Shown: positions 17,656 through 31,208 of the stretch, piece by piece
Layout of the letters: each line of letters starts with the position of its first letter
Position numbering within the stretch: the first letter of the stretch is position 1
NCBI GenBank assembly: GCA_913046215.1
Contig: CAJWRJ010000002.1
Location: 5,950 to 69,949, forward strand
Source: an uncultured Legionellales bacterium
Lineage (GTDB): Bacteria; Pseudomonadota; Gammaproteobacteria; Eutrophobiales; Eutrophobiaceae
Length of the DNA stretch: 64,000 nt
Direction: 5' to 3'
Notes under the pieces: model-generated
The model's database searches: none
What the model was told of the DNA's origin: nothing
The model's input: only the letters and a program-made list of their open reading frames with translations
Translations under genes and position numbers: made by a program

Positions 17656-18264
17656 TTATTTTTTAAGTATTAGATAACTTCTTATTACGAAAAAATAGAA
17701 TATTGGCGCACCAATGGCTGCCGCAGTTATGAAGTAATATTCTAATTTATAATATGTAATGATTGGGAGAATATACAATGAATCCTCTGCTTCGAAACCA
17801 CTTTTGAATGGTTGACGGGCCTTATTTTTACCAATCTCTTTTTCGATTTTATTTCTTGTATAGAATATTGCTGCAACTGAAACACCAGCAACGATTCCTA
17901 TTGGTAGCGCATAAAAACCTAGACTGCTATGAATAAGGCCAATACTAATACCAATAAATAAAAATATATTAACAAGAGCATCAGAGATAAGGTCGTACGT
18001 ATGTCCTTTAATACTAGTTTCATTTTTTAATCTCGCTAACTCTCCATCAGCATGATCTAAAAAATTTGAAAACACAAAACAACACGCACCAGCATTACTG
18101 TATAAATATTCACCAATTGAAAAGAAAAACCCAGCTAAAAGTCCAAAAAATAATCTTAATGTTGTTAAATAATTGGGTGTAACGAAAGTATTACGAAGTG
18201 GATATATCAATCTATATGCGATTTGAGCATCCCATGGTCTACTATCTGATGGATCAATTAGCAT
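17656..18264 (-). CDS. CDP-alcohol phosphatidyltransferase family protein (paralog 1, between hpnN and hpnA)
   Basis: 202-aa polytopic protein with the complete catalytic motif D-x2-D-G-x2-A-R-x8-G-x3-D-x3-D (DHADGELARLKNETSIKGHTYDLISD). 6-bp gap to hpnN and 4-bp gap to hpnA. Confidence 0.8.
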   Translation of the reverse strand: MLIDPSDSRPWDAQIAYRLIYPLRNTFVTPNYLTTLRLFFGLLAGFFFSIGEYLYSNAGACCFVFSNFLDHADGELARLKNETSIKGHTYDLISDALVNIFLFIGISIGLIHSSLGFYALPIGIVAGVSVAAIFYTRNKIEKEIGKNKARQPFKSGFEAEDSLYILPIITYYKLEYYFITAAAIGAPIFYFFVIRSYLILKK

Positions 18265-20909: not shown

Positions 20910-21659
20910 TTAAACTTTAAAAATATATTCTTTATTAGGGTTACGTTCAATATCAGGAGGATAGCTAAGACGTTTATCAGAATAGTACTTTTCGCGACTA
21001 TCGCCTTCCGACATTGCATTATATGTTACATAGAGCACTCTTCTTTTAACATGAGTTAGATTTGGCCCAGAGCGATGCGGTGCGTATGAATCAAAAAATA
21101 TAGCATCACCGGGTTCTGTTTGTACGGGTTTGTAATCAAGCGCATTTTCCTCAAGGGGCGCCCATTGCTCTCCAATTAAACCTTTATCATGATGATTGGC
21201 AGCTATTTCAAGACATCCATTTTCAGTATTTGAGGCATCAATAGTTACTAATGCTGTAATATGTAGCTTTGCATACTTGTCCCATCCTGCCTGAACATCC
21301 TGATGAGCCTTAAATCCATCACCACCTGGCATTTTAAAATTTATTTTATCCTTGAATAGAATTGCATTTTCTCCAAATAGTTCAGATGTTATGTTTTGAA
21401 TTTTTCCAGATATGAAAAGCTCACTAAAACCTTTATGAAAGGGTTCTAAATTTTCCATACGCGATAGTATTCGTTTTTTTTCATTAATCTTACTTTGTTC
21501 AAAATACATCATATATTTATTTTTAATCTCAGGATAATTTGCAACCTCATCAACCCATTGTGTGATCTCATTCAGTTCTTCTCCGTAGTACAATTTACGT
21601 ACTATTAAAAAACCAGTATTTTTGAAGTTTTGAATTTGTTTATTAGATAATCTCATCAT
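20910..21659 (-). CDS. phytanoyl-CoA dioxygenase (PhyH)-like Fe(II)/2-oxoglutarate-dependent oxygenase
   Basis: 249 aa with a PhyH-like layout. Candidate H-x-D...H facial triad (HQD ... APHRSG). Lies between hpnG and hpnN in the same operon. Confidence 0.55.
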   Translation of the reverse strand: MMRLSNKQIQNFKNTGFLIVRKLYYGEELNEITQWVDEVANYPEIKNKYMMYFEQSKINEKKRILSRMENLEPFHKGFSELFISGKIQNITSELFGENAILFKDKINFKMPGGDGFKAHQDVQAGWDKYAKLHITALVTIDASNTENGCLEIAANHHDKGLIGEQWAPLEENALDYKPVQTEPGDAIFFDSYAPHRSGPNLTHVKRRVLYVTYNAMSEGDSREKYYSDKRLSYPPDIERNPNKEYIFKV

Positions 21660-24398: not shown

Positions 24399-25454
24399 TT
24401 AAAGTTTCTCATGAATATTAACTCTAGGCAAATGTCGCCCAGTAAGTTTAATAAGAAATCTCAATATAGCATCATTTTTTACGAAAATGCTTGTAATTAG
24501 AATGGTTAATTTTACACTAAGATGACTAATTTTTACTTCTTTTCCATTGGTAAAATTTGGGTTTTTTCTAATTTTTTCCAGCGTTAACACGGCCATTCCA
24601 ATAGCCCATAAGCAGAATTTACGCAAACCTATTTCATTTTTTGGGATCAATAAAGTATAAGTCAATGCATTTTCAAGGTGAGCATATGCAACTCCCAATA
24701 ATTCAATTAATGCATTATTAAATTCATTTATATTCTGATTAGGTTTTTTAGTGCTTATGTCAATACCATATTTTTTAAAATGATCTTTTGGTAGCCAACA
24801 TGCTCCCCTACTATGATCTTCCCAAATATCCTTCAGGATATTTGTCATTTGTAATCCTTGCCCAAACGAAACAGCTAGCTCCATTAATTTTTTTTGATTT
24901 TTATCAATATCAGTTGAATAATCACAAAATAACTCAGTTAACATTTCACCCACAACCCCAGCTACATGGTAGCAATAATCATTCATGTCTTTTATATTCT
25001 TTAATCCATTTAATGATTCCTCGATTTGATATTTAGCCATACCCTTACACATAATTGAAACGCAACGATTTAAGGCACTTAATTGTCGCTTGTTAAAACT
25101 ATGTGTTACACGGATAACTTTTTCTGTATTAGCAATTAAGTTATGTTCTGCATCAGTTGCATTTGGTGAGAGTATATCGAATAGTTTTTTAGAAAAAATA
25201 TTAACATTTTTATTATTTCTTACTACATCAATAAACATATCAGCGTACTCTTTCTTTTGTTCAATAGACATTGATTTATCATCTTCAATTGAATCTGCTA
25301 TTCGACAAAGAAGGTATGCATTAGATACAACCAGTCTTAATTTCTCTGGTAATTGGGGTATTGTAAGAGCAAATGTACGGGAAACATGTTGTAATATCAT
25401 ATGTTGGTAAGCAACATCATCCGGAACTGTGTTAAACTCTTGCGTGGATTTCAT
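24399..25454 (-). CDS. sqs: squalene synthase (single-enzyme, eukaryote-type farnesyl-diphosphate farnesyltransferase)
   Basis: 351-aa isoprenoid_synt_type2 enzyme with VSRTFALTIPQLP (the SQS SRSF-type motif) and Asp-rich ADSIEDD. First gene of the operon ending in hpnA. Confidence 0.8.
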   Translation of the reverse strand: MKSTQEFNTVPDDVAYQHMILQHVSRTFALTIPQLPEKLRLVVSNAYLLCRIADSIEDDKSMSIEQKKEYADMFIDVVRNNKNVNIFSKKLFDILSPNATDAEHNLIANTEKVIRVTHSFNKRQLSALNRCVSIMCKGMAKYQIEESLNGLKNIKDMNDYCYHVAGVVGEMLTELFCDYSTDIDKNQKKLMELAVSFGQGLQMTNILKDIWEDHSRGACWLPKDHFKKYGIDISTKKPNQNINEFNNALIELLGVAYAHLENALTYTLLIPKNEIGLRKFCLWAIGMAVLTLEKIRKNPNFTNGKEVKISHLSVKLTILITSIFVKNDAILRFLIKLTGRHLPRVNIHEKL

Positions 25455-27111: not shown

Positions 27112-27699
27112 CTAATTAGTTATTTTTTTTAATAAATAATATGTAAATATTGCAAATATAGGAGCACCTACCGATGCACCGATGAGAAAAGGAAGATGCC
27201 AGTTTAACCAAACTATCGGGGCAAAAAGATATATGATATCGTCGAAATCAAAACCAGCTATTCCTGTGTATGCTTTTTCTCCTGTGGCTCTCTTTTTTTG
27301 ATCTATTTTTTCAGCAAAAATCTCAGAAAAAATTACGCCAATACACGCAGACAAACCCATCATTATTGTCAGATAGTTAGGTAATTTATCTTGTAGGCCT
27401 ATCCCGATTGCTAGAAAAAAAAGTGCCGTAATAAAAGTGTCAGTGTAATAGTCAAATTTATGACCTAAAGAACTAATATTTCCAGAGATTCTAGCAAGCT
27501 CTCCATCAGCTCTATCAAGAAAAGTTGATATTATCCACATTACACCACCCAAAATATTCATTTTTAATGCAAAAGCAACACATGCTGCCAATCCTATTAT
27601 TAGCCTTAAAAGTGTGACGTGATTTGGAGTGATAGGCGTATTGACTAACGGTTTAATACATACTCGAGCAATCTTATGAGTCCAAGAGTCACCAATCAT
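27112..27699 (-). CDS. CDP-alcohol phosphatidyltransferase family protein (paralog 2, last gene of hpnI-J-K operon)
   Basis: 195 aa. Full catalytic motif DRADGELARISGNISSLGHKFDYYTD. Shares N-terminal ITPNxxTLLRL and C-terminal GAPIF segments with paralog 1. 2-bp gap after hpnK. Confidence 0.8.
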   Translation of the reverse strand: MIGDSWTHKIARVCIKPLVNTPITPNHVTLLRLIIGLAACVAFALKMNILGGVMWIISTFLDRADGELARISGNISSLGHKFDYYTDTFITALFFLAIGIGLQDKLPNYLTIMMGLSACIGVIFSEIFAEKIDQKKRATGEKAYTGIAGFDFDDIIYLFAPIVWLNWHLPFLIGASVGAPIFAIFTYYLLKKITN

Positions 27700-27701
27700 T
27701 T

Positions 27702-28433
27702 TTATGAGTTGAAGCCCGAAAGTTCAATATTAAATTTTTCGATAGTTCTTTTTATTCGAGCGTGTATAAGGGCTTTGTATTCTTCAACAAACTCGTAGTT
27801 ATAAAGTGTATTATCATTTTCTGTTGAGGGGTGAGTATAAATTTCAGTTATACCATCTTTTATATGCGGAATAATACGCACAAGTTTATCAATATTCATA
27901 TGCCCACTATCATGTAGACCATAAATATAATTGTTAAAAATAATCTTATTGTTTTTACATTTTTTCTCCATTTGATATGTAAATATCGAAAAAAATAACC
28001 ATCTAATATATCTCATAAAAAATTCTTTTTTATTATAAATAATTGAATTAAGAGGAGGTTCATTTGGAATACGGATGGCTGTTAAATTATACTCCCTTCC
28101 AATTTCTATAATTAAATTAAATATAGTTGGGTGAAGGTGCATATGATTATGTGCATTTACATGATCTAGTTTTAAACCTGTTTTTTTAAATGCTTTAAAT
28201 TGCGCCCGTATTTCTTTTTTTAGTTCAGATCTCGCTTTGTTATTGAAAAAATAATTTACTCCACACCAAAATTTATTATTACTAAACTCACATTTACTAT
28301 TTACCAAATTTGGTATTTCGACAATTGGTAATGAAGATTTCCCATTAGATAGTACAATATGCAAACCTACGTTTAATTCAGGATTTTTTTTTGCAATTTT
28401 TACTGCATGGCTGGCTTCTGGTGCAGCAATCAT
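27702..28433 (-). CDS. hpnK: hopanoid-associated YdjC-family deacetylase HpnK (annotated from first ATG; the true N-terminus very probably extends ~35 codons upstream to a CTG at 28538, see findings)
   Basis: YdjC-like core. The in-frame upstream sequence encodes the family's catalytic N-terminus KKVIVTGDDFGLSVPVNNAILKSFTNGILTTTSL, which aligns to ChbG LLIVNADDFGLS...GIVTSTT. Confidence 0.7.
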   Translation of the reverse strand: MIAAPEASHAVKIAKKNPELNVGLHIVLSNGKSSLPIVEIPNLVNSKCEFSNNKFWCGVNYFFNNKARSELKKEIRAQFKAFKKTGLKLDHVNAHNHMHLHPTIFNLIIEIGREYNLTAIRIPNEPPLNSIIYNKKEFFMRYIRWLFFSIFTYQMEKKCKNNKIIFNNYIYGLHDSGHMNIDKLVRIIPHIKDGITEIYTHPSTENDNTLYNYEFVEEYKALIHARIKRTIEKFNIELSGFNS

Positions 28434-28534
28434 TAGGCTTGTTGTTGTTAATATCCCATTCGTGAAGGATTTTAATATGGCATTGTTTACAGGAACTGAA
28501 AGACCAAAATCATCACCCGTAACAATTACTTTTT

Positions 28535-29956
28535 TCAGACTGTATTCTCCCGTCCAAACAAGAATTTGAAAAATTCAACACCTTCTCTTAGTCTGCGTTT
28601 CATAATTTCCCAATCTTTGCACATTTCAAAAAATAGTATAACCATTTTTTTTGGCCTAAAATAAAAACGTTTATAGAAATTATCAACTGCTTCAAAAATT
28701 TCTTTACTTGAAAGATGTGGATAATTGAGTATTGAGTGTTGAACTCCATCACTACCAACTAAATCATCATCCGCAACTAACCAACCATTTTCAACTGCCT
28801 GATTATATAAGTAAGTTCCTGGATAGGCGGCAGGGAGTGATACCTGTATTGTTTGTGGGTTTAACTCTTGTGCATATTTTATCGTCTCTTCTATAGTTTC
28901 ATTTGTTTCGCCTGGCAAACCCACAATAAATGTTCCATGAATAAGAATTCCCAGTTTATGACAATCTCTTGTGAATTGTCTTGCTATATCAAGCCTTATG
29001 CCTTTTTTTATATTTACTAATATATCTTGATTTCCAGATTCATATCCAACTAGCAGCAAACGCAAACCATTATCTTTCATAATTTTTAGTGTTTCATATG
29101 GGACATTTGCTTTCGCATTACAAGACCATGTAATACCAAGTTTTCCAATTTCTTTTGCAAGAGCTTCAACATGAGAAATATTGTCGGTCAATGTGTCATC
29201 ATCAAAAAAGAATTCTTTAATTTCAGGAAAGTTATCACGCGCCCATAATACTTCTGCAGCAATATTTTCCACAGAACGTGTCCGGTAATTATGTCCAGAG
29301 ATTGTTTGAGGCCATAAACAAAAAGAGCAACGAGATTTACAACCTCGACCCGTATAAAAGGACATATAAGGGTGAAGCATATAGCCATTAAAATAATCAG
29401 TAGTAGTAAGATGTTTTTTATAAACTTTAGTAACCCATGGAAGACTATCCATATTTTCAATCATTGCACGAGGTTTATTATGTATAACAACTCCATTTTT
29501 TTTATAGGTTAATCCATCTATATTTTCTATTATTTTCCCTTCTGCTACTTCTTTAATCGTAAAATCAAATTCATTTCCAGCAACAAAGTCAATTGCATCT
29601 GAAGCAAGAATTGAGTGATCTGGATTAACTGCTACATGCGCACCACAAAAACCAATAATAAGATTTTTGTTTTCATGTTTTAGTGCTTCAGCAATGCGTA
29701 CATCATTAGGAAATGAGGGAGTGCTTGTGTAGAGAACTATTAATTCATAATCTTTAGCTAGAGGTAGAATATCTTCAAGTGAAGTACCTCTTGCTGGCGC
29801 ATCTATTAATTTACTTCCTTCAATTAATGCAGCTAATTGTGCAAGCCATGTTGGATACCAAAAAGATTTAACTTCACGCGTACATTGATAACGTGAACCT
29901 GCACCTCCATCAAAGCCGTTATAGGATGGCGGATTTAAAAAAAGTGTTTTTAACAT
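28535..29956 (-). CDS. hpnJ: hopanoid-associated B12-binding radical SAM protein HpnJ
   Basis: 473 aa. N-terminal cobalamin-binding-like domain followed by a radical-SAM CxxxCxxC (GCKSRCSFC). Its size and domain order fit HpnJ rather than the shorter HpnH. Confidence 0.75.
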   Translation of the reverse strand: MLKTLFLNPPSYNGFDGGAGSRYQCTREVKSFWYPTWLAQLAALIEGSKLIDAPARGTSLEDILPLAKDYELIVLYTSTPSFPNDVRIAEALKHENKNLIIGFCGAHVAVNPDHSILASDAIDFVAGNEFDFTIKEVAEGKIIENIDGLTYKKNGVVIHNKPRAMIENMDSLPWVTKVYKKHLTTTDYFNGYMLHPYMSFYTGRGCKSRCSFCLWPQTISGHNYRTRSVENIAAEVLWARDNFPEIKEFFFDDDTLTDNISHVEALAKEIGKLGITWSCNAKANVPYETLKIMKDNGLRLLLVGYESGNQDILVNIKKGIRLDIARQFTRDCHKLGILIHGTFIVGLPGETNETIEETIKYAQELNPQTIQVSLPAAYPGTYLYNQAVENGWLVADDDLVGSDGVQHSILNYPHLSSKEIFEAVDNFYKRFYFRPKKMVILFFEMCKDWEIMKRRLREGVEFFKFLFGRENTV

Positions 29957-29978: not shown

Positions 29979-31208
29979 TTATGTATCTTGAGGTGAAATA
30001 GTGTCAGTTGTTTTATTTTCACGGTTTTTCTCTGATGAAATTATTTTTTCATCATGCATTAAACCTAGATGATCAACAGCGAATTTATTTTTACGCCACT
30101 CCACGGAATTTCCAGCATAACTCAATATTCTTATAAAAAAGGTTAGTGTATCTCGTAGCGGAATTAACCATATTTTTCCAACTCTCCCCGAATCTGTAAC
30201 TTCATTAGTTTTAGAATACATATATACTCTTATAATAAGGGTTATAAATATAGGAAATAAAAATAATACAAAACTATTACCTATCACATAAAGTGAAGTC
30301 CCAGCAAAAATGCTCAAAATTAAACTATCCGTTAAAAAAGTGAGAGCATAACCATAAGGCTCTACTCGTCTAAGTGTTCTTGCCCAACGTAGTTCATGTA
30401 AAATTAAATTTTTAAACGAGGATTCCTCAACTACATTCTTCACGATACAGTTCGATAAATGAATTTTATAGCCAATATTAGATATTAGTTTTCCTAACAT
30501 GTAGTCATCAGCTAGATGATTTGATAATGCTTCAAATCCACCAATTTTATGAAGAATACTTCGTCTTACTATCATTGTAGCACCTAGACAATACTCTATA
30601 GGTTTTATCATTTTTGATATTAATACCGATGGTAGAAACCAGTTATTTATGAACATTGTATTTAACATAGATGTTATTTTTTTTGTAGCTGATCCAAAAT
30701 AAAGACAAGTAATAGCACCAGTATTAGGATCGTCAAATGGTTTTATCACTTGAGATAGATAGTTTTCGTTAACCTGCATGTCACTATCAGCGATAAGCAT
30801 AAATTCATACTTTATTGAAGGACACATGTTTATCAAATTTGATACTTTATGATTTGTTCCATGTCGTTCCGTATTTATTATGAAACTTATATCAACATCA
30901 TTCAGCTCTTTTATAATCTTTTTTACTATAGGTAACGCTTCATCATTAACATCTTGCAATCCAAAAATAATTTGGTATTTCGGGTAATTTTGTTGACAAA
31001 AGCTCTTTAGATTTATGTACATTTCCGGATCAAGCCCATAAATCGGTTTTAATATACTAATTGGAGGCTGGAATTTCTTATCGTCTGAAAATGTATTTTT
31101 GTTCTTAAAAATTGAAATAGCTACTAAACCAGCGAATAGATATCCTAAGGAGAAGATCCAAAGTGATATTGATGCCATTAACAATATGTTGAGAAAATCA
31201 ATTTGCAT
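29979..31208 (-). CDS. hpnI: hopanoid-associated family-2 glycosyltransferase
   Basis: 409 aa with an N-terminal TM, GT2 fold, DxD (ADSDMQ) and a C-terminal TM region. First gene of the hpnI-J-K operon. Confidence 0.65.
   Translation of the reverse strand: MQIDFLNILLMASISLWIFSLGYLFAGLVAISIFKNKNTFSDDKKFQPPISILKPIYGLDPEMYINLKSFCQQNYPKYQIIFGLQDVNDEALPIVKKIIKELNDVDISFIINTERHGTNHKVSNLINMCPSIKYEFMLIADSDMQVNENYLSQVIKPFDDPNTGAITCLYFGSATKKITSMLNTMFINNWFLPSVLISKMIKPIEYCLGATMIVRRSILHKIGGFEALSNHLADDYMLGKLISNIGYKIHLSNCIVKNVVEESSFKNLILHELRWARTLRRVEPYGYALTFLTDSLILSIFAGTSLYVIGNSFVLFLFPIFITLIIRVYMYSKTNEVTDSGRVGKIWLIPLRDTLTFFIRILSYAGNSVEWRKNKFAVDHLGLMHDEKIISSEKNRENKTTDTISPQDT

Follow-up and report, generated by a model that had tools for sequence, protein, structure and literature searches.

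Translation of hpnK, a gene of the hopanoid cluster in a 64,000-nucleotide stretch of DNA from an uncultured Legionellales bacterium (hereafter the window), probably starts at a CUG codon. This codon (28538-28536, minus strand) overlaps by two bases the UGA that ends the upstream gene hpnJ, and a GGGAG motif precedes it. As judged from alignments of related genomes, the CTG start is very probably held by selection across a marine bacterial clade and is neither an error nor the mark of a broken gene.

How might such a codon be used? Most likely, ribosomes that end hpnJ, or that are recruited or held by GGGAG acting as a Shine-Dalgarno (SD) motif, would initiate at the CUG with initiator tRNA and make a product that begins Met-Lys-Lys-Val-Ile-Val-Thr-Gly-Asp-Asp-Phe-Gly and thus includes the catalytic Asp pair. 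A weak CUG start would keep the output of HpnK low and would tie it to hpnJ translation. Gene pairs with a 4-nt overlap are typically coupled by termination-reinitiation (PMC6728339, PMC12548453); hpnJ and hpnK are co-oriented, show the NTGA overlap by which coupled pairs are recognized, and keep it as CTGA in all close relatives. CUG initiation complexes are less stable (PMC11497404), and the start codons of prokaryotes follow a general trend of selection towards AUG (PMC5622118). We infer that fMet-tRNA reads the CUG, that hpnK initiation depends on hpnJ termination, and that weak expression is itself a selected property.

The hpnJ/hpnK junction and the N-terminus of HpnK

The junction comprises the following features:

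28535..29956, minus strand: hpnJ, radical SAM ring-contraction enzyme and upstream overlap partner (TIGR03471, 762 bits, cutoff 577.6)
28575..28577, minus strand: TGA in frame, closing the hpnK frame upstream of the CTG (read from the sequence)
28547..28551, minus strand: GGGAG, SD-like, within the hpnJ codons CGG GAG, 8 nt before the CTG
28536..28538, minus strand: proposed CTG (CUG) start of hpnK, whose T and G also begin the hpnJ stop
28535..28537, minus strand: hpnJ stop codon TGA, giving the 4-nt stop-start overlap CTGA (28538-28535; read from the sequence)
27702..28538, minus strand: full-length hpnK as proposed, 278 codons plus stop, from the CTG (profile and tblastn matches)
28434..28535, minus strand: hpnK codons 2-35 (KKVIVTGDDFGLSVPVNNAILKSFTNGILTTTSL), absent from the ATG-based gene call (translation)
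28503..28514, minus strand: DDFG motif (D9, D10, F11, G12; alignment with ChbG, PDB 7VI8)
28431..28433, minus strand: internal ATG (Met36), the first canonical start and the one chosen by gene callers (read from the sequence)

The match of hpnJ to TIGR03471 reaches profile position 470 of 472, so that the TGA is the natural end of the gene, whose 3' end reads ...TTT GGA CGG GAG AAT ACA GTC TGA. The hpnK frame runs one base out of register with hpnJ (in its -1 frame) and stays open over the 13 codons that lead up to the CTG: from 28577 it reads TGA ATT TTT CAA ATT CTT GTT TGG ACG GGA GAA TAC AGT CTG(28538), and it continues after the CTG as AAA AAA GTA ATT GTT ACG GGT GAT GAT TTT GGT ... ATG(28433). 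Neither ATG, GTG nor TTG is present in this frame between the TGA (28577-28575) and the ATG (28433). The minus-strand sequence thus agrees with the original prediction that the frame stays open upstream of that ATG and lacks canonical starts until a TGA closes it, and likewise with the predicted overlap of the CTG and the hpnJ stop as CTGA, preceded by GGGAG at a spacing of 8 nt. That prediction had also named the CTG at 28538 and an ATT at 28574 as the only plausible initiators; both are there, but they are not the only ones, as further near-cognate ATT codons stand at 28565 and 28526 (codon 5, the Ile of KKVIV).

The protein depends on the stretch that precedes the ATG. Read from the CTG, it matches the HpnK profile TIGR03473 with 315.2 bits (cutoff 232.6) over positions 2-279 of 283, and the YdjC profile PF04794 with 216.7 bits (cutoff 29.7) over positions 1-265 of 266; read from ATG 28433, it scores 259 bits against TIGR03473 (positions 36-279) and covers positions 34-265 of PF04794. 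In relatives, tblastn matches span HpnK residues 1-278. Residues D9, D10, H60 and H130 of HpnK align with D10, D11, H61 and H125 of Klebsiella pneumoniae ChbG (PDB 7VI8), in which zinc is bound by D11, H61 and H125 and D10 is the proposed general base (PMC9402603). Both histidines are invariant across the family alignment, and the motif [GASC]DD[FY]G was found in the window and in all 80 homologous loci fetched (the best 80 of about 600 matches in a GTDB scan with one genome per species). Because D9 and D10 are encoded upstream of the ATG, a protein started at Met36 would be without two of the four active-site residues. The profile matches and the ChbG alignment therefore bear out the earlier identification of the gene as hpnK and of the upstream stretch as a YdjC/ChbG N-terminus with its active-site Asp residues. 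The gene in the window is very probably an intact member of the HpnK/YdjC deacetylase family, with an activity predicted from sequence.

Where does the hpnK coding sequence begin? Codon-position variability follows the hpnJ frame right up to the CTG and the hpnK frame from there on. Across codons 2-35 in 18 relatives, entropy is 1.13 at codon position 3 versus 0.37 and 0.16 at the other two, and this concentration of variability at the third position argues that the stretch 28434..28535 is translated in the hpnK frame. The nearest hpnK-frame stop upstream of the CTG lies at -15 to -144 nt in 17 close relatives and at -3 nt in a distant locus with the CTG (L080). Together with the frame switch, these near and varying stops indicate that hpnK coding begins at the CTG and that nothing upstream belongs to it. 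In distant homologs (about 40-45% identity), the CTG aligns with ATG, GTG or TTG, and the sequence continues with the same K-[KR]-[LV]-I-V-T-[GA]-D-D-F-G. Alignment of orthologous N-termini, which had been suggested as a check on the prediction, accordingly places the beginning of HpnK homologs at the CTG-aligned codon and not after DDFG.

Conservation of the CTG and of the Shine-Dalgarno-like motif

An identical hpnJ/hpnK junction is found in three further, independent metagenome assemblies that belong to the same species as the window (L084, L085 and L086; 99-100% protein identity), one of which differs from the window at nearby synonymous sites. The species scan yielded 17 gammaproteobacterial relatives, with records labelled as uncultured Legionellales, Thiotrichaceae or Gammaproteobacteria, an HpnK identity of 55-69% and a G+C content of 32-43%. 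In each of them (17/17, or 18/18 with the window) hpnJ ends in NNC TGA, with the CTG in the hpnK frame. The arrangement also occurs in four further metagenome lineages, one of them on an 812-kb contig that is apparently a long-read assembly, which brings the number of other lineages to 21 (HpnK identity 55-72%). The last residue of hpnJ varies among Val, Ile, Ala and Thr in the 18 genomes and the four further lineages, yet its third base is always C.

The original prediction had left a choice between a rare non-canonical start with translational coupling and a start-codon mutation or sequencing error. We considered and rejected the idea that the CTG arose through faulty sequencing or assembly, or that a canonical start (ATG, GTG or TTG) was mutated in this strain alone: it is contradicted by the identical junctions in three same-species assemblies and by the CTG in 21 of 21 other lineages, and we give it practically no chance. 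As for the first option, the non-canonical start is supported by a clade-wide CTG under selection, whereas coupling is what the arrangement of the two genes would suggest.

Selection can be assessed against the rest of hpnJ. When the hpnJ codons of the 18 genomes are aligned, the third base is invariant in none of 128 strict four-fold degenerate columns, and in 2 of 228 columns whose residues are at least three-fold degenerate. Those two columns are the Arg NGG that completes GGGAG and the final NNC that gives the C of the CTG. Four-fold sites of hpnJ are close to saturation (pairwise identity 0.27-0.57, at least eight lineage groups), and in the hpnJ of the window they hold C in 9% and T in 42% of cases. 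If only C and T are allowed, at their four-fold frequencies, and eight lineages are taken as independent, the probability of finding C in eight of eight is a few in 100,000. A change of the C to A, G or T would make AUG, GUG or UUG and would be silent or nearly so in hpnJ; none of these changes was seen in the AT-rich clade, and T in particular was never found at this position, though a T would leave the hpnJ product unchanged, would yield UUG and has base composition in its favour.

The putative ribosome-binding site behaves in a similar way. CGGGAG or AGGGAG is invariant in 28 sequences, and GGGAG, written as CGG or AGG followed by GAG, is present at 27 of 27 CTG junctions in the aligned hpnJ-hpnK overlaps, whereas the four TTG or GTG junctions carry GAA or CAA (GGGAA or GGCAA) and no GAG. 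Such an association of CTG with GGGAG would be expected if a better ribosome-binding site has to make up for a weak start. The codons involved are minority codons by the usage of the window: CGG makes up 2.2% of Arg, GAG 31% of Glu and GTC 10.8% of Val codons. Taken together, the alignments point to measurable purifying selection across the clade on both the C of the CTG and the SD motif.

In a neighbour-joining tree of HpnK, the 18 gammaproteobacterial and 10 alphaproteobacterial sequences form one clade, within which every junction that overlaps hpnJ is CTG. The hpnK genes of cultured Burkholderiaceae and Methylobacterium start with GTG or ATG, and a protein search of plasmid and chromid records for cultured carriers of the CTG junction gave only these two groups.

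Two lineages depart from the arrangement. In L081 (P0041, 2374-2600), an insert of about 230 nt sits precisely where hpnJ meets hpnK, and the CTG arrangement is lost: hpnJ ends in GCT TGA, and hpnK is called from a far-upstream ATG with a 36-residue extension. In L082 and L083 (P0043, 2495-2520), hpnJ ends in TAG, the frame offset differs by one base in an A-run, and hpnK starts at a GTG 11 nt inside hpnJ (MLSRKLIVTGDDFG). These two loci are an evolutionary escape from the CTGA arrangement. Separately, an alphaproteobacterial metagenome-assembled genome (L062, 2940-3030) lacks hpnJ upstream of hpnK and any canonical start ahead of DDFG, with a CTG in the position aligned with the hpnK start; this locus may represent an uncoupled CTG start or an error of assembly.

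RNA structure at the hpnJ 3' end was also considered, and one candidate element emerged:

28537..28583, minus strand: possible hairpin at the hpnJ 3' end, pairing the SD motif and start region with upstream hpnJ codons (RNAalifold; not established)

In this hairpin GGGAGAR pairs with GUUCUUC, which comprises hpnJ Glu-Phe-Phe codons, and the start region (NCCU/CCUG) pairs with AGGN. The consensus from RNAalifold can pair in 96% of cells, with weak covariation (17-20 of 500 shuffles do as well). Its topology recurs in 12 of 16 single-sequence minimum-energy folds of relatives, with z-scores of -2.2 to +1.2, and the window's own fold has a different inner stem and a z-score of -0.5 to -0.9. Neither in the window nor in the relatives was the stability of the hairpin above that of shuffled controls. 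A hairpin that masks the SD motif and the start is thus a possibility raised by structure prediction, and it would fit coupling.

Alternative starts and other routes into the hpnK frame

Several points weigh against a CUG start at 28538. In Escherichia coli, CUG initiates at about 1-2% of the AUG level (bioRxiv 10.1101/063800). The selection tests count lineages as independent, without phylogenetic correction, and selection on the C could reflect RNA structure or termination context and not the strength of the start. Eight of the 10 genomes of the alphaproteobacterial sister clade have a canonical codon (GTG, TTG or ATG) in frame with the CTG, seven codons before it. Finally, codon 5 of hpnK is Ile, and hence a near-cognate codon, in all close relatives (ATT in the window; ATT, ATC or ATA elsewhere), and 11 of the 18 genomes have a TTG at codon 4 or a GTG at codon 6.

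The alphaproteobacterial case arises from hpnJ itself. All 10 genomes of this clade have the CTG at the junction, and the Leu-Trp codons of their hpnJ (CTN TGG) create an in-frame NTG 21 nt upstream of it, which is GTG, TTG, ATG or CTG (L016, L019, L027, L033, L036, L040, L052, L054, L055 and L075). Gene callers start at the upstream NTG in 110 of 120 alphaproteobacterial clusters (M/V-GPGERGLKRLIV...), and the SD motif then lies inside the called gene. The hpnK start in the alphaproteobacterial sister clade is ambiguous, and we rejected the clade as independent support for the CTG, since it is confounded by the upstream in-frame NTG and by a codon usage that is GC-rich. In the gammaproteobacterial clade, Leu-Phe stands in the place of Leu-Trp, giving GTT and hence no upstream NTG option.

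A start at another weak or downstream codon, namely ATT 28526 at codon 5 or, in relatives, the TTG of codon 4 or the GTG of codon 6, is unlikely in our estimate, though it deserves the most serious consideration of the alternatives. The protein would be only 3-5 residues shorter and would retain DDFG, ATT, ATC and ATA are about as strong as CUG in E. coli (bioRxiv 10.1101/063800), and gene callers do use the starts at codons 4 and 6. However, the SD motif would then lie 20 nt from the start (for codon 5), and codon 4 varies (TTG, TTA, CTA, CTT, GTA), as does codon 6 (GTT, GTC, GTG), which is not how a conserved start behaves; a canonical codon at positions 4-6 is absent in 7 of the 18 genomes, the window included. 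Moreover, a downstream start would leave the invariant C and the invariant GGGAG unexplained, and it is at odds with the canonical start that distant homologs have at the CTG position. We consider it very unlikely that HpnJ and HpnK are instead joined into a fusion by recoding, either through a -1 frameshift near the end of hpnJ or through UGA read-through followed by -1 slippage. The slippery heptamer A_AAA_AAG (28535-28529), present in the window only, follows the UGA directly and in the correct register, and the hpnK frame is indeed the -1 frame of hpnJ, with its 13 open codons before the CTG. Yet the heptamer consists of Lys-Lys codons that are not conserved (relatives have AAG AAA, AAA CAA or AAA CGN), no slippery sequence precedes the hpnJ stop, and the stretch upstream of the CTG evolves in the hpnJ frame only. 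Nor would a shift site fit in the close relative L013, whose hpnK frame has a stop at -15 nt, or in the distant L080, where the stop is at -3 nt.

A comparably slight chance attaches to the view that ATG 28433 is the real start, or that hpnK is decaying, with the DDFG stretch a relic and the product truncated or inactive. This ATG is the first canonical start, and 60 of 120 public gene calls begin at the internal Met or later. Against this stand the pattern of purifying selection in the hpnK frame over codons 2-35 in 18 genomes and the general base and metal ligand encoded before the ATG. Met36 is an invariant internal residue of the HpnK family, conserved even in homologs with canonical upstream starts, and the window sequence has no SD-like motif ahead of its codon.

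Several further routes were rejected. An alternative genetic code in which TGA is a sense codon does not fit a window that is densely coding under code 11 and an hpnJ that ends at the end of its profile; and recoding of TGA would supply no start, since the stops that precede the CTG in the hpnK frame of relatives include TAA and TAG. A +1 shift of the prfB type would enter the wrong frame, which closes after a few codons and is not that of hpnK. A genome-wide habit of non-canonical starts is likewise disfavoured, because hpnK is alone in this respect among the 57 genes of the window: in no other is the first canonical start preceded by 20 or more codons that are open and unoccupied. Similarly, of the six NTGA junctions in the window only that of hpnK uses C (the others are GTGA twice, TTGA once and ATGA twice). 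Both counts indicate that the CUG start proposed here is a gene-specific feature. As a side observation from the list of open reading frames, TGA is the rarest stop codon in the window (9 of 57 genes), and most TGA stops lie in 4-nt NTGA overlaps (1878, 2990, 11818, 55254, 34309 and 28538).

Public gene models do not recover the proposed start. The CTG position is the called start in none of the 120 closest protein clusters, which implies that no sampled cluster has a canonical start there. Half of them (60/120), those called from the internal Met or later, are without DDFG; the others begin at codon 4 (23/120), at codon 6 (26/120) or with an upstream extension (11/120), of which seven overlap hpnJ and four have the GTG start of the L082 type.

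The hopanoid cluster, implications and known systems

The region around hpnK is a complete hopanoid cluster, in which an hpnL-like gene, hpnI, hpnJ and hpnK stand in a row and shc, hpnG, hpnN and hpnA lie nearby. The features beyond the junction are:

29979..31208, minus strand: hpnI, glycosyltransferase and first enzyme of the three-step pathway, in an operon-like row with hpnJ and hpnK (TIGR03472, 381.5 bits, cutoff 310)
27112-27699, minus strand: CDP-alcohol phosphatidyltransferase-family gene, 2 nt after hpnK
17656-18264, minus strand: second CDP-alcohol phosphatidyltransferase-family gene
20910-21659, minus strand: 249-aa protein between hpnN and hpnG, similar to PhnY-type methylphosphonate hydroxylase (NF052437, 208 bits, cutoff 500)
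24399-25454, minus strand: squalene-forming enzyme beside shc (TIGR01559 squalene synthase, 130 bits, below cutoff)

The placement of the CDP-alcohol phosphatidyltransferase-family gene behind hpnK is kept in relatives (noted also in L081, L091-L095 and L099). For the two genes of this family, the best NCBIfam match is archaetidylinositol phosphate synthase, at 55-59 bits and far under the cutoffs, and they may be a sign of a hopanoid or lipid head-group step not described so far. The PhnY-like gene is an unexpected neighbour within an hpn cluster. The squalene-forming enzyme matches squalene synthase better than HpnC or HpnD, and no hpnCDE trio was seen in the stretch examined.

The order of the pathway is HpnI, HpnK, HpnJ, with HpnK deacetylating N-acetylglucosamine-linked bacteriohopanetetrol (BHT-N-acetylglucosamine), and bacteria differ widely in their ratio of BHT-glucosamine to BHT-cyclitol ether (PMC12583986). 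The product of HpnK is the substrate on which HpnJ acts, and a built-in limit on HpnK relative to HpnJ would be a testable contributor to that variation. From an abstract perspective, one may go further and suppose that CUG is actively preferred over AUG, GUG and UUG, and that CUGA is a device which fixes HpnK as a small fraction of HpnJ through obligate termination-reinitiation. We hold this extension tentatively, at somewhat less than even chances. If it is true, the junction would be a natural, evolutionarily validated case of reinitiating bacterial ribosomes using CUG. With a CUG kept against three silent routes to a canonical start, and combined with an SD motif and a stop overlap, it offers an unusually clean natural case, and it raises the questions of how start-codon strength sets enzyme ratios and whether reinitiating ribosomes discriminate less strictly between start codons. 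A more immediate consequence concerns annotation: inferences on structure or function that are drawn from the current gene models of the clade would be wrong.

How does hpnK compare with known systems? As a protein it resembles other HpnK/YdjC deacetylases in its full-length profile match, its D-D...H...H residues and its hpnI-hpnJ-hpnK context, and it is no different from them; the start codon alone is unusual. Full-text literature searches on hpnK, CUG starts and CTGA overlaps returned no description of the CTG start of hpnK. The programmed +1 frameshift of prfB (RF2) uses an SD-like element followed by an in-frame UGA. It shares with hpnJ/hpnK an internal SD-like motif shortly before a UGA at the end of a reading frame, but this likeness is superficial, as the 8-nt spacing of the SD motif to the CTG fits initiation and not the stimulation of a frameshift.

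Closer parallels exist for the two halves of the arrangement. Coupling at 4-nt overlaps (ATGA, GTGA, TTGA) likewise involves co-oriented genes, a start that shares two bases with the UGA and an SD motif in the upstream gene. In hpnK, however, the start is a near-cognate CUG, and the coupling of hpnJ and hpnK is proposed from their sequence; texts on overlap coupling (PMC6728339, Huber et al. 2019; PMC12548453, a review) make no mention of CUG or CTGA. In E. coli, infC (IF3) and pcnB start with AUU (PMC3592434). These are conserved near-cognate starts that limit or tune one gene, and infC stands directly after another cistron, whereas the CUG of hpnK overlaps the upstream stop, and HpnK is no translation factor and is not known to follow an autoregulatory logic. 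Near-cognate starts and overlap coupling are each known; to these hpnK adds a variant, in which a CUG lies within such an overlap and is kept by selection throughout a clade.

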